Part shown: positions 5,106-39,868 of the stretch, one piece after another
How positions within the stretch are numbered: the first letter of the stretch is position 1
Layout: every line of letters begins with the position of its first letter
Source: a virus
IMG/VR virus record: IMGVR_UViG_3300028908_000006
Location: 1 to 64,000 of that record
Reading direction: 5' to 3' (one strand)
DNA: 64,000 bases
Made by a program: the position numbers and the translations under genes
The notes under the pieces: generated by a model
Told to the model about the DNA's origin: nothing
What the model saw: the letters and a program-made list of their open reading frames with translations, nothing else
The model's database searches: none

Positions 5106-5697
5106 ACTTTATCTCCTGAGCTATGTTTTCAATATCAAACCCATACCTGTCTATCAGGTGGGCTATCTTCTGGAATCCAAGATGTGGGAAGGCTTTTTCT
5201 GTTCTGTGGAAGAAGTAGGGATAGAAATAACCTGAGAAAGAAGGAGAGTTGATATAGTAAAGAGTCCCTTCCTGGCTATGGAATTCCTTGATGGATCCTT
5301 TCAAGATAGCAGGGATGATTGTTTGGTAGTTTGCTATGATTGGCTTGTTTATGTATACCTGGTAAGTCTCTCGTATGATGGCCCGGATTGGCTCTTCGAC
5401 ATCTATGATGGAGAAAGAAATAGATTTTCCTGTATTGCCAGAGGCAACAATGGCTGTCATGATGGCCCGTGCTATGGTTGTTGAGACAAGACACACCTTC
5501 TTGTCTATGACACATACATACCGTGTCGTTATCATGGAATTGAAAGATTCAGGAGACACTAGAATGTTGTAGCATACAGGGCACGAAGCCAAATGCCTCA
5601 TAGATGGTGTATTTGTATGTCTCCATAGACACGGTATGAGATGTGTCTCACTCCAGAAGGATTTGATAAGGCTTGAAAGATTACCCTGGTCAAGCAT
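5089..5697 (-). CDS. hypothetical protein (Cys/His-rich N-terminus)
   Basis: 202 aa; start abuts the csx3 stop; HLASCPVC. Confidence 0.65.
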   Translation of the reverse strand: MLDQGNLSSLIKSFWSETHLIPCLWRHTNTPSMRHLASCPVCYNILVSPESFNSMITTRYVCVIDKKVCLVSTTIARAIMTAIVASGNTGKSISFSIIDVEEPIRAIIRETYQVYINKPIIANYQTIIPAILKGSIKEFHSQEGTLYYINSPSFSGYFYPYFFHRTEKAFPHLGFQKIAHLIDRYGFDIENIAQEIKYGEDS

Positions 5698-16947: not shown

Positions 16948-17912
16948 TGCATCCAAAGATAAGAAGCTTCCTTGGTAAGCGTGCGGCTATCCTTAAGGTA
17001 TCAGGCCAAGCGGCCAGGTTTTCAGGAGATACCATTGAGATTGTTGGGATAGACTTTATTTACAGGCTTAAGGTTCCTGGTGTGAGCATAGTCCCTTCCA
17101 TCTTTATCAACATCCAGGACCTGACATCGGTCCTCTCTATTCTTGGAGAGATTGAAGAAGCAAAGAGAGTGGATCGCAGGCTCCTTCTGAGACAGTCTTT
17201 CATCCAGGCAGAAATACCGGTAATGGAAGGAGATGTAAGCACGACTGTCTCTCAGATAACAGAAGGGGATACCATTTTATTTCCCGATGATTTCTATGAA
17301 TCGCTGGTCTCCCTTTCAAAGATCTTTTCCCTGGCCATGATCTACTTTCCAAGAAAGGACAGAGTGATTGTGCATGATGAAGGGGCCCGCTTCCTGGCCG
17401 TGATAGAGACAGAAGTCCCTGAAGATGTGATAGGCTCTTATGGCACCTGTTCTTCAAGTACTATCTTCATAGATTCTTTTTCTCCATCCTGGCAAGTCAT
17501 CCCTTCTACCTGGCACATCGTCTTAGGCCAGCATGGAGAACGGGAAGATTTTTACTTCATCTTCTCTTCCATGAAAGCGATTGAACTTGAACAGTTTGCT
17601 CCGCTTGCAAACCTTCTAGACGAACTCCTTTCTGAAGAAAGGATAGCCATAAAGACAGAGCCAAAACTTTTTTCAGCATCCTCTTTCCCCATAACCGATG
17701 TTATATTCAGGAATAAAGACATCATCATTTCATCTGACTCCTTCTCTCTTACCTTTGAAGGGGCCCTTTCTTCACCGATTGAAGCAACCATCCTCTCTTC
17801 TTCTTGGCAGGATTTAATTCCAAAGGCGAAGGGATACAGGCTTTTCTATCTCCCTGGCAGAAAGTTTTTGTGTGCTGAATCTGATCGTTTCAAGATCTTC
17901 CTACCTGCATAA
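16944..17912 (+). CDS. hypothetical protein, possibly a divergent sliding clamp
   Basis: 322 aa, beta-rich, between helicase and polymerase; clamp loader present downstream (inference). Confidence 0.4.
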   Translation: MMHPKIRSFLGKRAAILKVSGQAARFSGDTIEIVGIDFIYRLKVPGVSIVPSIFINIQDLTSVLSILGEIEEAKRVDRRLLLRQSFIQAEIPVMEGDVSTTVSQITEGDTILFPDDFYESLVSLSKIFSLAMIYFPRKDRVIVHDEGARFLAVIETEVPEDVIGSYGTCSSSTIFIDSFSPSWQVIPSTWHIVLGQHGEREDFYFIFSSMKAIELEQFAPLANLLDELLSEERIAIKTEPKLFSASSFPITDVIFRNKDIIISSDSFSLTFEGALSSPIEATILSSSWQDLIPKAKGYRLFYLPGRKFLCAESDRFKIFLPA

Positions 17913-20353
17913 TGAAGACCATAGATCTTCGCTTTGAAAAGCCAGAGAAGTGTGAGAAGTGTCAGTTTTTTCGGGCAGAGAGTGCCAAGTATGAATTTCC
18001 AGATAATCCAAAACTTGTTATCGTTGGAGAGTCCCTGGGTTATCGAGAAGTCCAGGAAGGGTCTCCATTTGTAGGAAAATCAGGAGCCTTCCTGAACACT
18101 CTTCTTTCCTTCTTTGATCTTACAAGAGACCAGGTTCATGTTACCAATGCTATCAAGTGTTTCCCTGGTGCTGGGAAGAACAAGGAGAAGATCAAGAAGC
18201 CGTCCATCAAGAAGTGCCTCTCCATCTTCCTTTCCCAGGAACTAGAAGAAACCAATCCCACACCGGTTCTTGTCCTTGGAGATCATGCCACCTACGCCAT
18301 CACCTTCTATCTATTTGGGAAAGGAAGAACCATCAAGGAGCTTGATGGGCGTGTAATTCAGAAGGATGGCCGGAAATATGCTTTCATGCGCCATCCTTCT
18401 TTCTATATGCGTCGCTATGGTGAAGGGAAGGCTGAAAAGGAATTTTACAACCATGGAAAGAAACTTCTTAAGGCCCTTTTTTCAGATGGTGCGGGAGACC
18501 TGAACTTTGACGATCCTCCACTCCCATTCACTTATCATGTTGGTGAGAGCCATCTTCTCTCCTTCCTATCTTCTCTTCCAGACAATGAAATCCTCATCTT
18601 TGACATTGAGACCAACGGCCTTCATTTCACCAACAAGGACATGGAGATAACCCTCATTGGTGTTTCAGACACCAGGGGAAACATCTTTGTGAACAAGCCA
18701 AGCAGGAAGATAATTGATGGTCTTTCCAGATTTCGTCTTGTGGCTCACAATGGAAAGTTTGACATCAACTTTATCAGGGCCAAGTATGGTATCAGGCTCA
18801 ATCTTTACTTTGACACCTTGCTTGCTGGTTATGCCATTGACCAGGGAAGAAAAGAGTATTCTCTTGAATCACTTACCTATACCTATGCACCAGACGCTGC
18901 TCTCTGGCGTGGAACTACCAAGTCAAAGAAGAAAGCGTCAACTCTTGATTTCGAGACTCTTGTTGAATACAACGCCATAGATGTCTATGCCACCTATCGG
19001 CTTTACCAGGAACTTTCACCAAAGCTGGAGTCTTCCTTCTTTTTCTGGGAAATTCTCATGCCAGCAACTGATATTTTTGCGGATGTAGAATTTCATGGCG
19101 CTTATGTAGATATTGAGCGTCTGCGATATATTGGAAACCTATGCCTTCACCTTAAATCTGTGGTGGAGAGAGACATCCGTTCTCTTCCTGAAGTTAACCA
19201 GCTTGAAGAAGAAAGAGGGACAAAATACAATCCAAGATCTTCCCAGCACAATCTTTTCATTCTCCAGCAAATAAAGAAACTGCAATATACAGATCCAAGA
19301 ACGAAGAAGACCTATCTTATTCCTTCGTCTAACAAGAAGATCCTGGCCAGGTTTAAGGATGATCGTTTTTGTAGTCTTCTTTTAAAGTATAGGAAGTATC
19401 AGAAGGCGTCCTCAACCTATGCTAAGGGTATAGAGAAGAAACTCATTCCAACCAAGTATCAAAACATCTTTAGAGGCTATCCATCCTTCTTTCTACATAG
19501 GACAGCAACGGGAAGGACTGCTTCAGGATCCCTTTTGACTGATTCTGCTTCCCCCATCACCCGCACGAAAGACGACATTTCTTTCAACTTCCAGAACTTC
19601 CCTCGTGGGAGGCTTATCCGTGGGATGATTATCCCACCGCCAGGATATATCATTGTATCGTTTGACTACTCCACCCTTGAAATGCGTATAGCAGCTGGCA
19701 TAGCCAACGAGCAACACCTAATTAAGGCCTTCATGGAAGGGCTTGATTTCCACACCTATATGGCTTCTCTTACCTTTGATGTGCCCTATGAAGAAGTAAC
19801 CAAAGAACAGCGTCAGCTGGCAAAGACCGTTTCGTTTGGGCTCCTCTATGGTGCATCTCCACTCTTGCTGGTGGAGAATTTTGGAATTTCAGAAGAGAGG
19901 GCTTATGAGATATACGACCGCTATTTTTCATCGGTGCCAAACATAAAAGCCTGGATAGACTCAACGATTGCCTTCATTGAAGAACACCATTATGTAGAAA
20001 CTCCCTTTGGTAGGAGAAGATATTTTTATGACCTTTCAAACAATGCTTACAAGCGTGAAGGTCCAAACATGGTGGTTCAATCTGTAGCCTCGGATCTCAT
20101 GCTCATTACGCTTTCTCTTATCAAGAAGGAACTACTTTCTCTTTCCTGGTGGGAGAGGGAAGTGATCTTCTTCTGTGCCGTCCATGATTCAGCTTCTTTC
20201 TATATCAAGGAAGACCAGGAAGTTATCGAAAAAGCAATTGACATATTCATCGATTGTGCTATGCTTAAGGTAGCAAGGATACCTGAAGTAGCTAGAGTAC
20301 TTTCAGGCTGCCCATTGCTGATAGATTTCAAGGTGGGGAAAAGATGGGAATAG
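17912..20353 (+). CDS. polA: family A DNA polymerase with N-terminal family-4 uracil-DNA glycosylase and 3'-5' exonuclease
   Basis: UDG: CEKC, IVGE, PFVGKSG, TNAIKC, HPS; exo: FDIET, HNGKFD, YNAID; pol: TATGR, DYSTLEMR, KTVSFGLLYG, VHD. Confidence 0.95.
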   Translation: MKTIDLRFEKPEKCEKCQFFRAESAKYEFPDNPKLVIVGESLGYREVQEGSPFVGKSGAFLNTLLSFFDLTRDQVHVTNAIKCFPGAGKNKEKIKKPSIKKCLSIFLSQELEETNPTPVLVLGDHATYAITFYLFGKGRTIKELDGRVIQKDGRKYAFMRHPSFYMRRYGEGKAEKEFYNHGKKLLKALFSDGAGDLNFDDPPLPFTYHVGESHLLSFLSSLPDNEILIFDIETNGLHFTNKDMEITLIGVSDTRGNIFVNKPSRKIIDGLSRFRLVAHNGKFDINFIRAKYGIRLNLYFDTLLAGYAIDQGRKEYSLESLTYTYAPDAALWRGTTKSKKKASTLDFETLVEYNAIDVYATYRLYQELSPKLESSFFFWEILMPATDIFADVEFHGAYVDIERLRYIGNLCLHLKSVVERDIRSLPEVNQLEEERGTKYNPRSSQHNLFILQQIKKLQYTDPRTKKTYLIPSSNKKILARFKDDRFCSLLLKYRKYQKASSTYAKGIEKKLIPTKYQNIFRGYPSFFLHRTATGRTASGSLLTDSASPITRTKDDISFNFQNFPRGRLIRGMIIPPPGYIIVSFDYSTLEMRIAAGIANEQHLIKAFMEGLDFHTYMASLTFDVPYEEVTKEQRQLAKTVSFGLLYGASPLLLVENFGISEERAYEIYDRYFSSVPNIKAWIDSTIAFIEEHHYVETPFGRRRYFYDLSNNAYKREGPNMVVQSVASDLMLITLSLIKKELLSLSWWEREVIFFCAVHDSASFYIKEDQEVIEKAIDIFIDCAMLKVARIPEVARVLSGCPLLIDFKVGKRWE

Positions 20354-27831: not shown

Positions 27832-28737
27832 ATGCCATCTCTCAAAGACTTTCTAGAAGAGTCCAGAGCAGGTGTTGATGTTTCAATGTTTTATCCAAAC
27901 GACAACTTCATTCTCTCGGCCCTTGGTGCCCGTGTTTGTTACTCGGACACCAATGATTTCTGTGTCCTTTATGCTGATCCCAGGGTGTCTGATCTTGGTG
28001 AAAGGAAGGCTTTCCTTGAGAGACTTCGTAAGGCAGGTCATTTCTCTGTCTTTGCTCATTCTCCTGTGGAATTTATGACGGTTGATCCACAACCCTATAG
28101 GAAGTTATATAAAGCGTTCATATATCGAAACGAGGTCTGTCTCAATGGCAGGCATTTGGTCGAGCTTACAGGAAAGCTCAACTTCTTTGAAGAAGATCCA
28201 AGAATAGACGGGTTCTTCTTCGCTGATCTTGAGTCTGGATTCGCCTTTAAGGCTTCCTCCCTGGCGGAACTCTCTCCATATACGGAAAAGGCTGATTCCT
28301 ATCTTGTAGGTATTCCTATTCCTGGTATCTTTAACTGGCTTTCTGTTACAGCGTTTGGAATTTCAAGAGTTACATCCCATCAATGGGTAAGGCACACTTG
28401 GCAAAATTTTAGCCAGCGCTCCCACCGCTATACTGCTGTTGATGGGTTTGTAATACCGCCTTCTTTTGATAAGCTCAGGTTCAGGGATATTCCGGGAAGA
28501 TTGTTTGTTGAAAACATCTACACGGAAACGGCCACGGCGTATCAGATTGCTGTCAATCAGGGAATTCCAAAGGAAGATGCCAGGTATTTAATTCCCAACG
28601 GAGCAAGGACTACTTTGATGTCTTCAGGGCCGTATTTTGTCTGGGAAGACTTTGTAGCAAAGCGGGCTGTGAAGGGTGCTCAATGGGAGATTAGGAGAGT
28701 GGCTGAAGCAATCTGTAGGTTTCTTTCTTTCATCTAA
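27832..28737 (+). CDS. thyX: flavin-dependent thymidylate synthase
   Basis: ARVCY, GHFSVFAH, HQWVRH...SQRSHRY, EDARYLIP, AQWEIR. Confidence 0.92.
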   Translation: MPSLKDFLEESRAGVDVSMFYPNDNFILSALGARVCYSDTNDFCVLYADPRVSDLGERKAFLERLRKAGHFSVFAHSPVEFMTVDPQPYRKLYKAFIYRNEVCLNGRHLVELTGKLNFFEEDPRIDGFFFADLESGFAFKASSLAELSPYTEKADSYLVGIPIPGIFNWLSVTAFGISRVTSHQWVRHTWQNFSQRSHRYTAVDGFVIPPSFDKLRFRDIPGRLFVENIYTETATAYQIAVNQGIPKEDARYLIPNGARTTLMSSGPYFVWEDFVAKRAVKGAQWEIRRVAEAICRFLSFI

Positions 28738-28751
28738 AGGAGGGTCTAAAA

Positions 28752-29411
28752 ATGACAATACAGGAGCTGGTAGAAGAACAGATTGCTCCCTGGGAGTATA
28801 GTTTTGCTGGCGAGCCCAAGAACATCTTCTCTATTCCAGAACCAACTAAAAACTTTAGCCGTGAATGGTTCAAGGCCCTTGAAAAGCCAGGCCAAAACTG
28901 GTGGTTGGAATTTTCTGATGACACATTTCCTGATGGGTGGGAAGATAAAATGCTTGTTGTTCTTGACAAAGCAGGTTTCAAGCCAAGAAAGAAAAGCAGT
29001 CTCAAACATTTTTTCCTCATTTTCCTGAAAAGAATGAGTGCCACTATATCAATCGCCATGCCAGTAAGCTACCTCTACTATATAGCTACTGGAAAATCCA
29101 TCTTTTCTATGAGATATATGCTTGAGCTTGATAACTTCCTTGCTTGGTGGAAGGAAATACGCAACAGGCCAGCGGATGAAACTCTTGTTGAGCCGCTATC
29201 CAAGCTTTCGCTTTACATAGCCATTATCTTCGCCAAGGCGATAGACCTCCGCTTCCTTTCACGGGATCGTTGGATCTTCAAAGGGCTAATCTATGTCAGC
29301 CGTAATCGCGGAGCTGAAACGCTTCTTCCTGAATTTGGTGCTTGTGATCCTTACTTTCCCTATATCCTTGAACTTTTGGAATATAGAAAAAGACTTGACA
29401 TCCATTTGTAG
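28752..29411 (+). CDS. hypothetical protein
   Basis: 219 aa; AAGGAGG RBS. Confidence 0.6.
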   Translation: MTIQELVEEQIAPWEYSFAGEPKNIFSIPEPTKNFSREWFKALEKPGQNWWLEFSDDTFPDGWEDKMLVVLDKAGFKPRKKSSLKHFFLIFLKRMSATISIAMPVSYLYYIATGKSIFSMRYMLELDNFLAWWKEIRNRPADETLVEPLSKLSLYIAIIFAKAIDLRFLSRDRWIFKGLIYVSRNRGAETLLPEFGACDPYFPYILELLEYRKRLDIHL

Positions 29412-29423
29412 GTTGGTTATATT
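29395..29423 (+). promoter_or_regulatory. sigma70 promoter driving a non-coding RNA
   Basis: TTGACA-17-TATATT. Confidence 0.75.
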
Positions 29424-29429
29424 GAAAAG

Positions 29430-29632
29430 TGAGGGGTAGCGGGCGGCCTTGGTGAGAGGTCACTACAATCAAGGCTACGGGAGAGGGCTCTAGAGCCCTC
29501 TCCCACTTAATGGGGTTTAGTTTTTCTTGGGAAAAAAGAGAAGAGCTAAGGCAATGATTATAAATTTCATATAAACCTCCTGATAGGTTTTAGTTTTGAA
29601 GGGAAGCTGGCACTCAGCTTCCCTTTTTTATT
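29430..29632 (+). ncRNA. putative structured sRNA antisense to the small hydrophobic ORF (type I antitoxin-like)
   Basis: Bounded by promoter and terminator; stems GCCTTG/CAAGGC and GTGA/TCAC; 26-bp palindrome at 29479-29504. Confidence 0.55.
29517..29570 (-). CDS. 17-aa hydrophobic peptide MKFIIIALALLFFPKKN (type I toxin-like)
   Basis: AGGAGG RBS 5 nt upstream, within hairpin AAACCT/AGGTTT; too short for the ORF track. Confidence 0.6.
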   Translation of the reverse strand: MKFIIIALALLFFPKKN

Positions 29633-29637
29633 TTTTT
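29599..29637 (+). terminator. intrinsic terminator
   Basis: AAGGGAAGCTG-gcact-CAGCTTCCCTT followed by T-tract. Confidence 0.85.
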
Positions 29638-29651
29638 AACAATTGGTTGAT

Positions 29652-29945
29652 ATGGCCAAGAAATATGTTGATCGAAAACACAAGCTATATGTCTATACCG
29701 GTGGAAAGTATCTAAGGCAAGAGCTTTCTTCTGCCCGTGGATGTAAGGCTTACCGTGTGAAAACAATTGACCCGCAGACGAAACTTCTTGTCTGTGTTAC
29801 CAGCAAGAAGGGAAAGCGTGGTGGGAAAACAAAGGCAGTTGCTATCCTTCGGTCGCCAAATAAAGATCTAAGGCGTTACAACAAGCGTGGCAGAAAGTAT
29901 TTGAAGAGAGCCCTTAAGAAGGCCAGGAAACTTCTCAAAAACTAA
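29652..29945 (+). CDS. highly basic small protein, probably nucleic-acid binding
   Basis: K/R-rich; KKGKRGGKTK. Confidence 0.6.
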   Translation: MAKKYVDRKHKLYVYTGGKYLRQELSSARGCKAYRVKTIDPQTKLLVCVTSKKGKRGGKTKAVAILRSPNKDLRRYNKRGRKYLKRALKKARKLLKN

Positions 29946-31459
29946 CCAACGGCAATCTTAGCGAGTTCCTTCCTTAATACCCTAGCCGTAACCCTTCCTT
30001 TACTCTTGGCTGTCTTTAAGATTCTATCATCCATCAGCCCCTTAGTAAGGAAGAAATCTACATACACCTTCCTGGTCTGTCCTATCCGGTTAACCCGCCC
30101 CACAGCCTGTTCTATGCTTGCTGGAGTCCAGTCATATTCCACGAACACGACCCGCCTAGCATTCTGAAGATTGAGAGCAAACTCTCCTTTCTGTATCTGT
30201 ATCACAATAACATCTATCTTTCCATTCTGGAATTGATCAATCACAGCATCAGCAAGTTTGTCTCTTATCCTTCCAGTAAAGGCTTCAACCTTTATTCCTT
30301 TTTTATGGAGCCCTTCAACTATTCTTCCTATGGTCTCTAAGAACTTAGCGAACACCACAACCTGATCTCCATTTTTTACTACATACTTCTCTATCGTCTC
30401 TATAGCTTTCTCTATCTTTGGAGACTCAAACCTTTCTACTATATCTCTTTCATAGACCAGGAAGCCAGAGCTCACCTGTTGAAGTTTCATGATCGTGTTC
30501 TTGATCTCAATAAGGGTTCCGTTTCTTTCCACAATTTCTGAAGAGATGTCTCTGGCCAGGTCTACCTGCTTATCCGTGGGATTGACGTATATTTTATTGA
30601 ACACAACATTTTCTTGCTCTTTCTCTTCCTTTGGAACTTTTATTGTGTTCTCATCTACTATAGCTTGGATTTCAGCAAGCCTTTGTGGTCTTGGCTCATA
30701 TTTGACATAATTCTTCCCTTCTATCTTGATGAAGTATCGGTTGAGGAAGTGCCACCAAGACATCCTAAAGGCCCAGGGATTTATCACAGACAGCTGGAAG
30801 AAAAGATCGTTTGGCTGATTTCTGATTGGGGTTCCTGTCATCAAGATTCTGTAGCGAGCAGTCTTCATTATCTCAGCTACCACAGCTGCTCTAACCGAAT
30901 ATGGGTTTTTTATCAGATGAGCTTCATCACAGACGATCATATCTACATTTCTATACTCTGGCCGAATAAGATCAGCCAGATCTCCTTCTTGGTGGAAATA
31001 AAGACCATCGTAATTTGTGACTATGATCTTATCTCCAAACCAGGATTCTGGAATATCGAAGAATTTCTTTAGCTCAGCTATCATCTGCGTAATTCCTGCC
31101 TTTGGGACTACTATCAACGCTTTTCTTATCTTTCCTGTAATGAGCCTTCTTATGACTACATATCCGGCCATGTATGTCTTACCACGCCCAACTTCACCAA
31201 AGAGAAAGGCTCTTCTGAATGAGAGCAGGATCTTTATAGGCAGCTCCTGGTGTGGCTTTGGTGGATATTTACAGAATGAGAGATCAAGCGGCCTTTCATC
31301 TTTCAGCAGCCCTTGATTAAACAACTTACAAACCTTCTTATATTTTTGGCACTCGTTATAGAGAGCTTTTATGTCTTCTATCTTCTCACCACGTATAAAA
31401 TTGCTGGCGTGCTTCATTGAAAATATGAGTGGAAATTCTTTCTTTACACGCTTCTTCAT
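29942..31459 (-). CDS. SNF2-family helicase
   Basis: EVGRGKT, CDEAH, MTGTP, LNLQ, QAVGRVNRIGQ; start 31459 with GGAGAGG. Confidence 0.9.
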   Translation of the reverse strand: MKKRVKKEFPLIFSMKHASNFIRGEKIEDIKALYNECQKYKKVCKLFNQGLLKDERPLDLSFCKYPPKPHQELPIKILLSFRRAFLFGEVGRGKTYMAGYVVIRRLITGKIRKALIVVPKAGITQMIAELKKFFDIPESWFGDKIIVTNYDGLYFHQEGDLADLIRPEYRNVDMIVCDEAHLIKNPYSVRAAVVAEIMKTARYRILMTGTPIRNQPNDLFFQLSVINPWAFRMSWWHFLNRYFIKIEGKNYVKYEPRPQRLAEIQAIVDENTIKVPKEEKEQENVVFNKIYVNPTDKQVDLARDISSEIVERNGTLIEIKNTIMKLQQVSSGFLVYERDIVERFESPKIEKAIETIEKYVVKNGDQVVVFAKFLETIGRIVEGLHKKGIKVEAFTGRIRDKLADAVIDQFQNGKIDVIVIQIQKGEFALNLQNARRVVFVEYDWTPASIEQAVGRVNRIGQTRKVYVDFFLTKGLMDDRILKTAKSKGRVTARVLRKELAKIAVG

Positions 31460-31469
31460 TCTACCTCTC

Positions 31470-32015
31470 CTAGATCTTGTAGAAACTTGATCTGATAGCG
31501 TATGCACAAATATTTTTAAGTGCTTCTTGCACGTCACTTATTTTCCATAAGACTGAAAGGCAGCATATAAACATACCACTATCAGTAATGACAATATAAG
31601 CTTTCTCTATTCCTGGCTTGCCATATCTATCAGGAAGCATCAGCATATTTACAGTCCCTATCTGTTTTGGCTCCAGTCCGTAATCAATTATATGATCTAT
31701 CATAATCTCGTGTATAAACTTCTCATCTTCGTAGAAATCTTCTATTGTGGTCAAAATCTCACCACGATACAGTATCGGAAAATCGAACCACAACCCCAAT
31801 GTCCCGCATCCCTCTATGTATCTTTCATTGATTTTATAATGTGTATCACAGAAAAGTATGTAACAATCTTTTTCTTTTATTAGCACCATATCTGGCCTTG
31901 TTTTTTGTGTTTCAATATCAGGAATACGGCCTTCTCTTATAATAATGTATGCCGGATGAAGGAATGGCTCCTTCGCTGGTATGGTAAAGAACTTTTTATC
32001 GTATTCAAGTATCAT
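31470..32015 (-). CDS. hypothetical protein
   Basis: 181 aa in operon. Confidence 0.55.
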   Translation of the reverse strand: MILEYDKKFFTIPAKEPFLHPAYIIIREGRIPDIETQKTRPDMVLIKEKDCYILFCDTHYKINERYIEGCGTLGLWFDFPILYRGEILTTIEDFYEDEKFIHEIMIDHIIDYGLEPKQIGTVNMLMLPDRYGKPGIEKAYIVITDSGMFICCLSVLWKISDVQEALKNICAYAIRSSFYKI

Positions 32016-39755: not shown

Positions 39756-39868
39756 AATCTCTTCCTCCTTAGAATAAATAGATTTCAATCTCTGTGATAT
39801 TAAGTAACCTATGACCGAACCAAGGAAGAGCCTTCTTTCTTCATCATTGGTATCATTGAAAGGTTCAT

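Follow-up and report, generated by a model that had tools for sequence, protein, structure and literature searches.

The window analysed here covers positions 1 to 64,000 of an IMG/VR virus record (IMGVR_UViG_3300028908_000006), which is 90,338 bp long and has direct terminal repeats. It contains a small sense/antisense locus that we tentatively interpret, at slightly less than even odds (probability about 0.45), as a type I toxin-antitoxin-like cassette of Ibs/Sib-type layout, mobile between a plasmid-like element and a phage and belonging to no curated family; the last attribute refers to Rfam scans of the RNA, and the peptide is likened to Ibs by description. In silico analysis confirms the layout that a first-pass annotation had proposed: an antisense RNA with a predicted promoter and terminator spans the whole of a 17-codon open reading frame (ORF) on the opposite strand, together with its ribosome-binding site (RBS). 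The locus is more than a chance arrangement because it is conserved on an unrelated replicon, the metagenome contig L004. The shared part (29479-29637, both strands) comprises one hairpin (hairpin 1), the RBS, the ORF and a second hairpin (hairpin 2), and appears from the comparison of the two carriers to be a horizontally mobile, self-contained sense/antisense unit of about 160 nucleotides (nt). The phage DNA is present in a hydrothermal-vent metagenome run, referred to below as the source run.

The small open reading frame and its start signal

The 17-codon ORF with its stop codon occupies positions 29570 to 29517 of the minus strand and encodes a candidate membrane toxin (MKFIIIALALLFFPKKN), in which 12 of the first 15 residues are hydrophobic (counting I, V, L, F, C, M and A) and the C-terminus is PKKN. 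As the first-pass annotation had noted, it is preceded by an AGGAGG Shine-Dalgarno (SD) sequence (29581-29576, minus strand), which lies 5 nt before the ATG and is kept in both full copies of the cassette. In this phage the combination of AGGAGG and ATG is a specific gene-start signal, since 34 of the 36 such pairs in the genome open ORFs of at least 50 amino acids (aa). The two exceptions are the 17-codon ORF itself and a minus-strand ORF at 39868, the product of which has 19 aa and is not hydrophobic.

Both the phage peptide and its L004 allele fall within the type I toxin search criteria of Fozo et al., given in an excerpt of that paper as 16-70 aa, at least 10 hydrophobic residues in 15 and a polar C-terminus (PMC2887945). 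The small size of the peptide is not disqualifying, because IbsC, which has 19 aa, is reported in an excerpt of PMC8309996 to keep its toxicity after truncation to 15 aa, of which 10 are hydrophobic. The further suggestion that the RBS is held in an AAACCT/AGGTTT hairpin stands in part: the hairpin exists in the window, with six AU-rich pairs, and is absent from L004. The predicted probability that the SD sequence is unpaired in mRNA from the peptide strand is 0.22-0.42, depending on the transcript start, a modest sequestration that was not used as evidence.

The predicted antisense RNA

A sigma-70-like promoter, TTGACA-17-TATATT, is located on the plus strand at 29395-29423, overlapping the stop codon of an upstream 219-aa gene and lying about 50 nt upstream of the shared cassette. 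It matches the consensus at 11 of 12 positions; promoters of this quality occur six times in the 90,338-bp genome (both strands), versus 2.2 times in 40 dinucleotide shuffles, and the chance expectation is about 0.0012 for a given 100 nt of one strand. Transcription is predicted to start near 29430 and to end at an intrinsic terminator (29598-29637, plus strand), in which a 13-pair stem (29598-29626, hairpin 1) is followed by a U-tract, TTTATTTTTT; seen from the peptide strand, the terminator sits immediately upstream of the RBS. Promoter and terminator enclose the ORF (29517-29570) and the SD sequence (29576-29581), and there is no plus-strand ORF between them. The candidate antitoxin small RNA (sRNA) delimited by these two signals (29430-29637, plus strand) would be about 200 nt long and fully antisense to the ORF and RBS, and it has a predicted fold of -80.8 kcal/mol (z -5.3; -5.26 for the minus strand). 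The promoter, the strong terminator and the structured RNA of about 200 nt had all been described in the first-pass annotation, and the present analysis bears them out. Ordinary intergenic punctuation is excluded as an explanation, as the promoter precedes the terminator, reversing the usual order, and the arrangement is conserved on a second replicon. A tRNA or tmRNA reading of the structured RNA was also rejected.

Further hairpins precede the terminator on the predicted RNA. The first, at its 5' end (29445-29477, plus strand), is phage-specific, the homology with L004 stopping before it. Hairpin 2 is the perfect 26-bp palindrome (13+13) already recognized in the first-pass annotation (29479-29504, both strands), located just after the stop codon of the ORF on the minus strand. 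The block between the stop codon and hairpin 2 contains a small hairpin, CCCA-CTTAA-TGGG (29501-29515, plus strand), which is conserved and leads into a T-rich stretch. Finally, a 13-pair hairpin with a 9-nt loop, GGGAAAAAA (29516-29550, plus strand), lies inside the 3' half of the ORF. On the antisense strand this internal hairpin is stable in both copies (-14.2 kcal/mol in the phage, -10.9 kcal/mol in L004), whereas its peptide-strand counterpart is stable in L004 (-8.7 kcal/mol) and not in the phage (-1.6 kcal/mol), because G-U pairs on the plus strand of the phage allele become C-A mismatches on the peptide strand. Together with the conserved antisense terminator and the near-consensus phage promoter, the internal hairpin supports the prediction of a real plus-strand RNA.

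A second copy on a plasmid-like element

L004 was found by scanning JGI metagenome contigs with a degenerate peptide-level pattern. By BLASTN, positions 29496-29633 of the window correspond to 5373-5231 of L004 (82% identity over 144 nt, E 2e-30), and the cassette is the sole strong similarity between the phage and L004. A 46-nt match (83%, E 2.4e-4) between the phage terminal repeat (genome positions 57-101 and 90268-90312) and the Rep-like gene of L004 (2964-3008) was also recorded, and may be of low complexity.

The gene order of L004, assigned with Pfam, is an integrase, an RHH+ParE pair, an HTH_36 Rep-like gene, a DUF4258+DUF2283 pair, ParA+RHH, the cassette and a convergent YafQ gene. 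On this gene content L004 is plasmid-like, and its copy of the cassette, between ParA/RHH and YafQ, lies in what is evidently a maintenance region of type II toxin-antitoxin and partition genes. Both full copies of the cassette are carried by mobile elements, and the maintenance-region setting on L004 supports the interpretation as a type I toxin-antitoxin-like cassette. Two 300-nt direct repeats on L004 (8-307 and 948-1247; 97% identical) duplicate the 3' end of the integrase gene and flank the RHH+ParE pair, which looks as if it had been inserted as a cassette. Between parA/RHH and hairpin 1, at about 5199-5223, L004 has two tandem copies of a 12-nt repeat, ATCAAGGTAGGA, which could be a centromere-like or operator site.

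In both copies the order of elements on the peptide strand is an A-run and hairpin 1, a spacer with the SD sequence, the 17-codon ORF, a 12-nt linker and hairpin 2. On L004 the equivalent of hairpin 2 is followed by a T-run and scores as a peptide-strand terminator (5365-5391), and a second predicted terminator ends the antisense strand (5266-5239); since the two are placed crosswise, transcripts ending at them must overlap across the ORF. The peptide strand of L004 has a promoter candidate with 9 of 12 matches 180 nt upstream, and the best candidate on its antisense strand also has 9 of 12, combining a perfect TATAAT with a poor -35 element.

Conservation differs among the parts of the cassette. 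Identity between the phage and L004 is 89% in the ORF and 92% from the stop codon to hairpin 2, and falls to 52% in the spacer, 74% in the A-run and hairpin 1, and 54% in hairpin 2; this pattern indicates that the ORF region is under constraint relative to the drifting hairpins and spacer. The phage and L004 versions of hairpins 1 and 2 have equally stable folds (about -19 and -20 to -26 kcal/mol), and hairpin 1 is kept in L004 with a paired one-base shortening of its stem. As these energies are equal despite 54-74% identity, the stems have been maintained while their sequence drifted.

The L004 peptide, MKFLIIILVFLFFPKKN, is encoded by an ORF that differs from that of the phage at 6 of 54 positions, giving four replacements (I>L, A>I, A>V and L>F), all of one hydrophobic residue by another, and one change that is synonymous. 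In run X2 a third allele, on a contig whose alignment begins at 29504, lacks 6 nt of the ORF without loss of the frame, resulting in a 15-aa peptide; this deletion is the only indel of the ORF among the differences listed, and the five indels listed outside it, of 1 or 2 nt each, are located in the spacer before the start codon, with the SD sequence left in place. The conservative replacements and the frame-keeping deletion favour a translated ORF, without proving translation.

Contigs of two runs containing the phage DNA were aligned to the window, and contigs other than those of the phage align only to about 29496-29606. An L004-type allele is present in the source run, where the listed differences and loose ends of record 3 match L004; contig depth in this run is 18.7 for the L004-type element and 26.9 for the phage. 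The source-run contigs break at 29588-29617, and their summed depth at 29589 is about 105. The hairpin-1 region is common to the phage, the L004-type element, a 372-nt contig (depth 6.3) and contigs of 45-46 nt; the breaks and the depth at hairpin 1 imply that several sequence contexts in the source sample share this region.

Searches for further copies

The pattern scan of JGI metagenome contigs returned two matches, of which L004 is genuine and the other (L005) is due to chance, being out of frame inside a long ORF. The same degenerate peptide-level pattern had no match in IMG/VR, nor did the exact 26-nt palindrome. A 21-mer from the 3' end of the ORF matched two IMG/VR loci, both by chance within an unrelated gene. 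A looser pattern, applied to 185,579 species genomes, found 21 stretches, none of them cassette-like: 11 were out of frame, five had internal stop codons, and five were in frame but non-hydrophobic and without an SD sequence. BLASTN of the cassette against PLSDB plasmids gave two partial matches (E 0.04 and 0.5) and against GenBank phages three records (E 0.05, 18% of the query), none of which is meaningful. No relatives of the L004 ParA were found in IMG/VR.

The phage genome and neighbouring genes

The plus-strand block of the window from 9.8 to 29.9 kb is a replication and nucleotide-metabolism module, which by domain assignment encodes an SbcC-like ATPase, a primase-helicase, a family A DNA polymerase, a clamp-loader-like ATPase and ThyX. 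The 813-aa DNA polymerase (17912-20353, plus strand) has a domain of the UDG superfamily at its N-terminus (residues 28-176), joined to 3'-5' exonuclease and family A polymerase domains. The 301-aa ThyX-like protein (27832-28737, plus strand) matches Thy1 only in residues 175-297, and its N-terminal 170 residues belong to no recognized family. The minus-strand block begins with a gene for a SNF2-type helicase (29942-31537). A tyrosine integrase, ParA and ParB were looked for in the phage and none was found. A lysis gene was sought near 73-76 kb and none was located, PHROGs naming just a tail assembly chaperone among six ORFs; no inference was drawn from this.

Two plus-strand genes flank the cassette. 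The upstream gene (219 aa, 28752-29411) belongs to no family and has no homologue. The downstream gene (97 aa, 29652-29945) encodes a very basic orphan protein and starts 15 nt past the terminator; its codon usage is gene-like (0.232, versus a mean of 0.201 and a standard deviation of 0.07 for the genes). It has no visible SD sequence or promoter of its own and may be expressed by read-through or antitermination. Because of this gene, the statement that the locus sits where two long operons converge needs correction: the true convergence point is at 29942-29945, near the locus and separated from it by this one gene. No minus-strand terminator follows the helicase gene, and we conjecture that transcription continuing past the end of that gene, antisense to the 97-aa gene, could extend to the 17-codon ORF.

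The phage is very distant from everything in GenBank, its DNA polymerase being at most 26.9% identical to that of any GenBank phage. Neither flanking protein has relatives in IMG/VR, and among 5.8 billion proteins each matches only itself; BLASTN of 28700-30000 against phages gave no match, and a search with the helicase gave a single locus, 27% identical. Owing to the divergence of the polymerase and helicase and the lack of relatives of the flanking proteins, a comparison of synteny with related phages is impossible.

Interpretation of the locus

What the analysis shows directly is which sequence signals are present, that they are conserved on L004 as well, and how the substitutions are distributed; transcription of either strand, translation, toxicity and the role of the cassette in the phage are what we infer from them, and the mechanism proposed here is based on established knowledge of type I systems. 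The antisense RNA would pair with the peptide mRNA, perhaps beginning at the conserved GGGAAAAAA loop, and this pairing would block ribosome binding and open the duplex to RNase III. If the level of the antisense RNA dropped, the peptide would be made, enter the inner membrane and depolarize it.

The type I-like layout itself, the copy on L004 and the composition of the peptide uphold the Ibs/Sib comparison made in the first-pass annotation, and several observations weigh against its extension to a functional toxin-antitoxin system. The peptide side of the phage copy looks poorly equipped, because its best promoter candidate within 390 nt upstream of the ORF has 8 of 12 matches (a consensus that phage-specific promoters escape) and its hairpin 2 lacks a T-run, and hence a U-tract, on the minus strand. 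At the gathering threshold, a scan of the window with Rfam detected three tRNAs and no antitoxin sRNA family, and a scan of 29350-29700 at relaxed E-values gave 13 weak matches, all far below the gathering scores (on the minus strand, OrzO-P with 20.3 versus 60 and RatA with 20.1 versus 49). With four replaced codons and one synonymous change, dN/dS carries no protein-level signal, and three alleles, one of them partly known, were available for the comparison. The antisense strand is the one favoured by the internal hairpin, and constraint at the RNA level could explain the nucleotide conservation. The two tandem SD-like motifs of L004 are also compatible with an antisense RNA that carries an anti-SD seed. 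Under a loose definition, small hydrophobic ORFs with SD-like motifs number seven in the genome and 2.5 in shuffles, and the hydrophobic run of the peptide, 11 residues, is shorter than in any type I toxin known to us. The cassette is single-copy in the 90,338-bp record. Plasmid-style addiction, which fits the L004 context better, has no obvious use in the phage, and it is awkward there because no integrase, ParA or ParB was found. Lysis timing and superinfection exclusion, the other functions suggested in the first-pass annotation, are conjectures on which none of the observations bears.

Several of these points would be accounted for if the locus were a stand-alone plus-strand sRNA gene, an RNA-encoding phage moron, with the antisense mini-ORF left untranslated. 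We consider this doubtful, and it is the principal rival. The targets of such an sRNA, which would act in trans, would be mRNAs of the host, a plasmid or a phage; they could be reached, for example, through an anti-Shine-Dalgarno motif, CCUCC(U), that immediately precedes the terminator hairpin on its 5' side. All strong expression signals in the phage are on the plus strand, the only strand on which the internal hairpin is stable in both copies; conservation is at the level of nucleotides rather than codons; and the tandem motifs of L004 amount to two CUCCUU seeds on the antisense RNA. An untranslated mini-ORF, however, leaves unexplained why AGGAGG and ATG stand at a working distance within the least conserved segment of the cassette, in a genome where this pair is so specific a signal of gene starts. 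Nor would it account for the frame kept by the deletion in the third allele while the listed 1- and 2-nt indels fall outside the ORF, for the hydrophobic character of every replacement in the peptide, or for the canonical terminator that the peptide strand of L004 has for itself right after the stop codon.

The asymmetry of the phage signals (an 11/12 promoter and a strong terminator on the plus strand, against at most 8/12 and no U-tract on the minus strand) could alternatively mean that a type I cassette was captured from a plasmid or host and that only its antisense RNA is driven, so that the mRNA of the host's toxin is kept silent when infection shuts off host transcription. We think it unlikely that the phage copy is such an anti-abortive-infection device. 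It would agree with the terminators that the plasmid-like copy keeps on both strands, with the co-occurrence of the L004-type allele and the phage in the source run, and with the failure to find integrase or partition genes in the phage, and it has precedents in pseudo-ToxI, directed against the type III system ToxIN, and in Dmd of phage T4. On the other side, the ORF and SD sequence of the phage are intact, and the phage RNA would pair imperfectly with the L004 allele, given the 6 differences in 54 ORF positions. The argument turns on the absence of detectable promoters, which is a weak criterion for middle and late phage promoters, and the triggering of abortive infection by the cassette is an assumption.

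It is rather improbable that the ORF encodes a non-toxic small membrane or regulatory peptide in the overlapping 3' ends of convergent transcripts, with an antisense RNA that is simply the 3' untranslated region of the upstream gene and at most has a tuning function. In the phage and on L004 alike, the antisense strand has a gene running in the same direction immediately before the cassette (the 219-aa gene and yafQ, respectively), with no terminator to separate them; on L004 the ORF follows parA-RHH on the same strand, so that hairpin 2 could end that operon; and in the phage the helicase gene lacks a terminator, such that read-through could supply the other transcript. Yet these upstream genes are unrelated whereas the boundaries of the cassette are identical, the phage has a dedicated near-consensus promoter before the antisense RNA, and the setting of the L004 copy among three type II toxin-antitoxin pairs points to maintenance. 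Hardly credible is a plus-strand RNA that acts as 5' leader or attenuator of the 97-aa gene: the order of promoter, 200-nt structured leader, terminator and a gene without visible SD sequence or promoter would suit it, as would the ability of a purine-rich arm (29532-29550) to pair alternatively with the 3' arm of the terminator (74% over 19 nt), but L004 has no homologue of the 97-aa protein downstream (BLASTP with the only ORF there gave no alignment at E of at most 100), and the RNA matches no cis-regulatory family in Rfam (L20_leader, 22.4 bits versus a gathering score of 58.7).

If the locus is, as we prefer, a type I toxin-antitoxin-like cassette, it would represent a new family of toxins, at the minimum size for a membrane toxin. 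According to an excerpt of PMC12390103, type I systems were previously known from Proteobacteria, Firmicutes and Tenericutes only, and an excerpt of PMC2887945 makes the case that horizontal transfer does little to spread them. A cassette of 160 nt that a phage and a plasmid-like element share within one vent community would directly counter the latter view. In the unlikely event that a probably virulent vent phage captured the cassette from a co-resident plasmid and rewired it so that only the antidote RNA is strongly expressed, as an RNA decoy against the type I abortive-infection or addiction toxin of a host plasmid, the locus would clearly exemplify the horizontal transfer of such a cassette between mobile elements that are unrelated, its peptide (17 aa, and 15 in one allele) would be the shortest type I toxin of which we are aware, and RNA-based anti-defence would reach beyond type III to type I systems. 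Even if the peptide is untranslated, the locus would still be a conserved, mobile, phage-borne sRNA gene.

Comparison with known systems

In the ibs/sib loci of Escherichia coli, the sRNA lies directly opposite the toxin ORF. The cassette resembles these loci (IbsC, 19 aa, and its antisense sRNA SibC, as portrayed in excerpts of PMC8309996 and PMC2887945) in having a very short, very hydrophobic peptide and a structured, cis-encoded sRNA over the whole ORF and RBS. It differs from them in matching no Rfam antitoxin sRNA family, Sib RNA included; in being single-copy, whereas ibs/sib loci are tandem; in its location on a phage and a plasmid-like element rather than an enterobacterial chromosome; and in the length of the peptide (17 aa, or 15 in one allele, compared with 19 aa). 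The C-terminus of the peptide is positive (PKKN), whereas IbsC is listed in an excerpt of PMC8309996 among toxins without positive C-terminal residues.

Toxins of hok/sok-type systems and of the prophage-borne type I systems of Clostridioides difficile have about 30-55 aa, and their antisense RNAs overlap only part of the toxin mRNA. Like the cassette, these systems (among them hokW-sokW of prophage Sp5) are carried by plasmids or phages and are linked to maintenance of the element, as excerpts of PMC8621323 and PMC7699646 indicate. The phages that carry them are temperate; in the phage studied here, neither an integrase nor a partition gene was found.

Phages are known to carry mimics of antitoxins, such as the pseudo-ToxI RNA of phage PhiTE, which acts against the type III system ToxIN, and Dmd of T4. 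The one-sided signals of the phage copy match these cases, in which a phage carries the antidote half against abortive infection; in contrast, the systems countered in the known cases are of types III and II, and here the toxin ORF is still intact. Among the titles listed by a literature search (10 of 60), none described a phage-borne type I antisense decoy.

Phage morons are units of promoter, gene and terminator inserted between phage genes. The transcribed strand of the cassette, unlike that of a moron, contains no ORF, the only ORF being antisense to it; like a moron, the cassette is an autonomous promoter-to-terminator unit between two co-directional phage genes, and it is common to an unrelated replicon.

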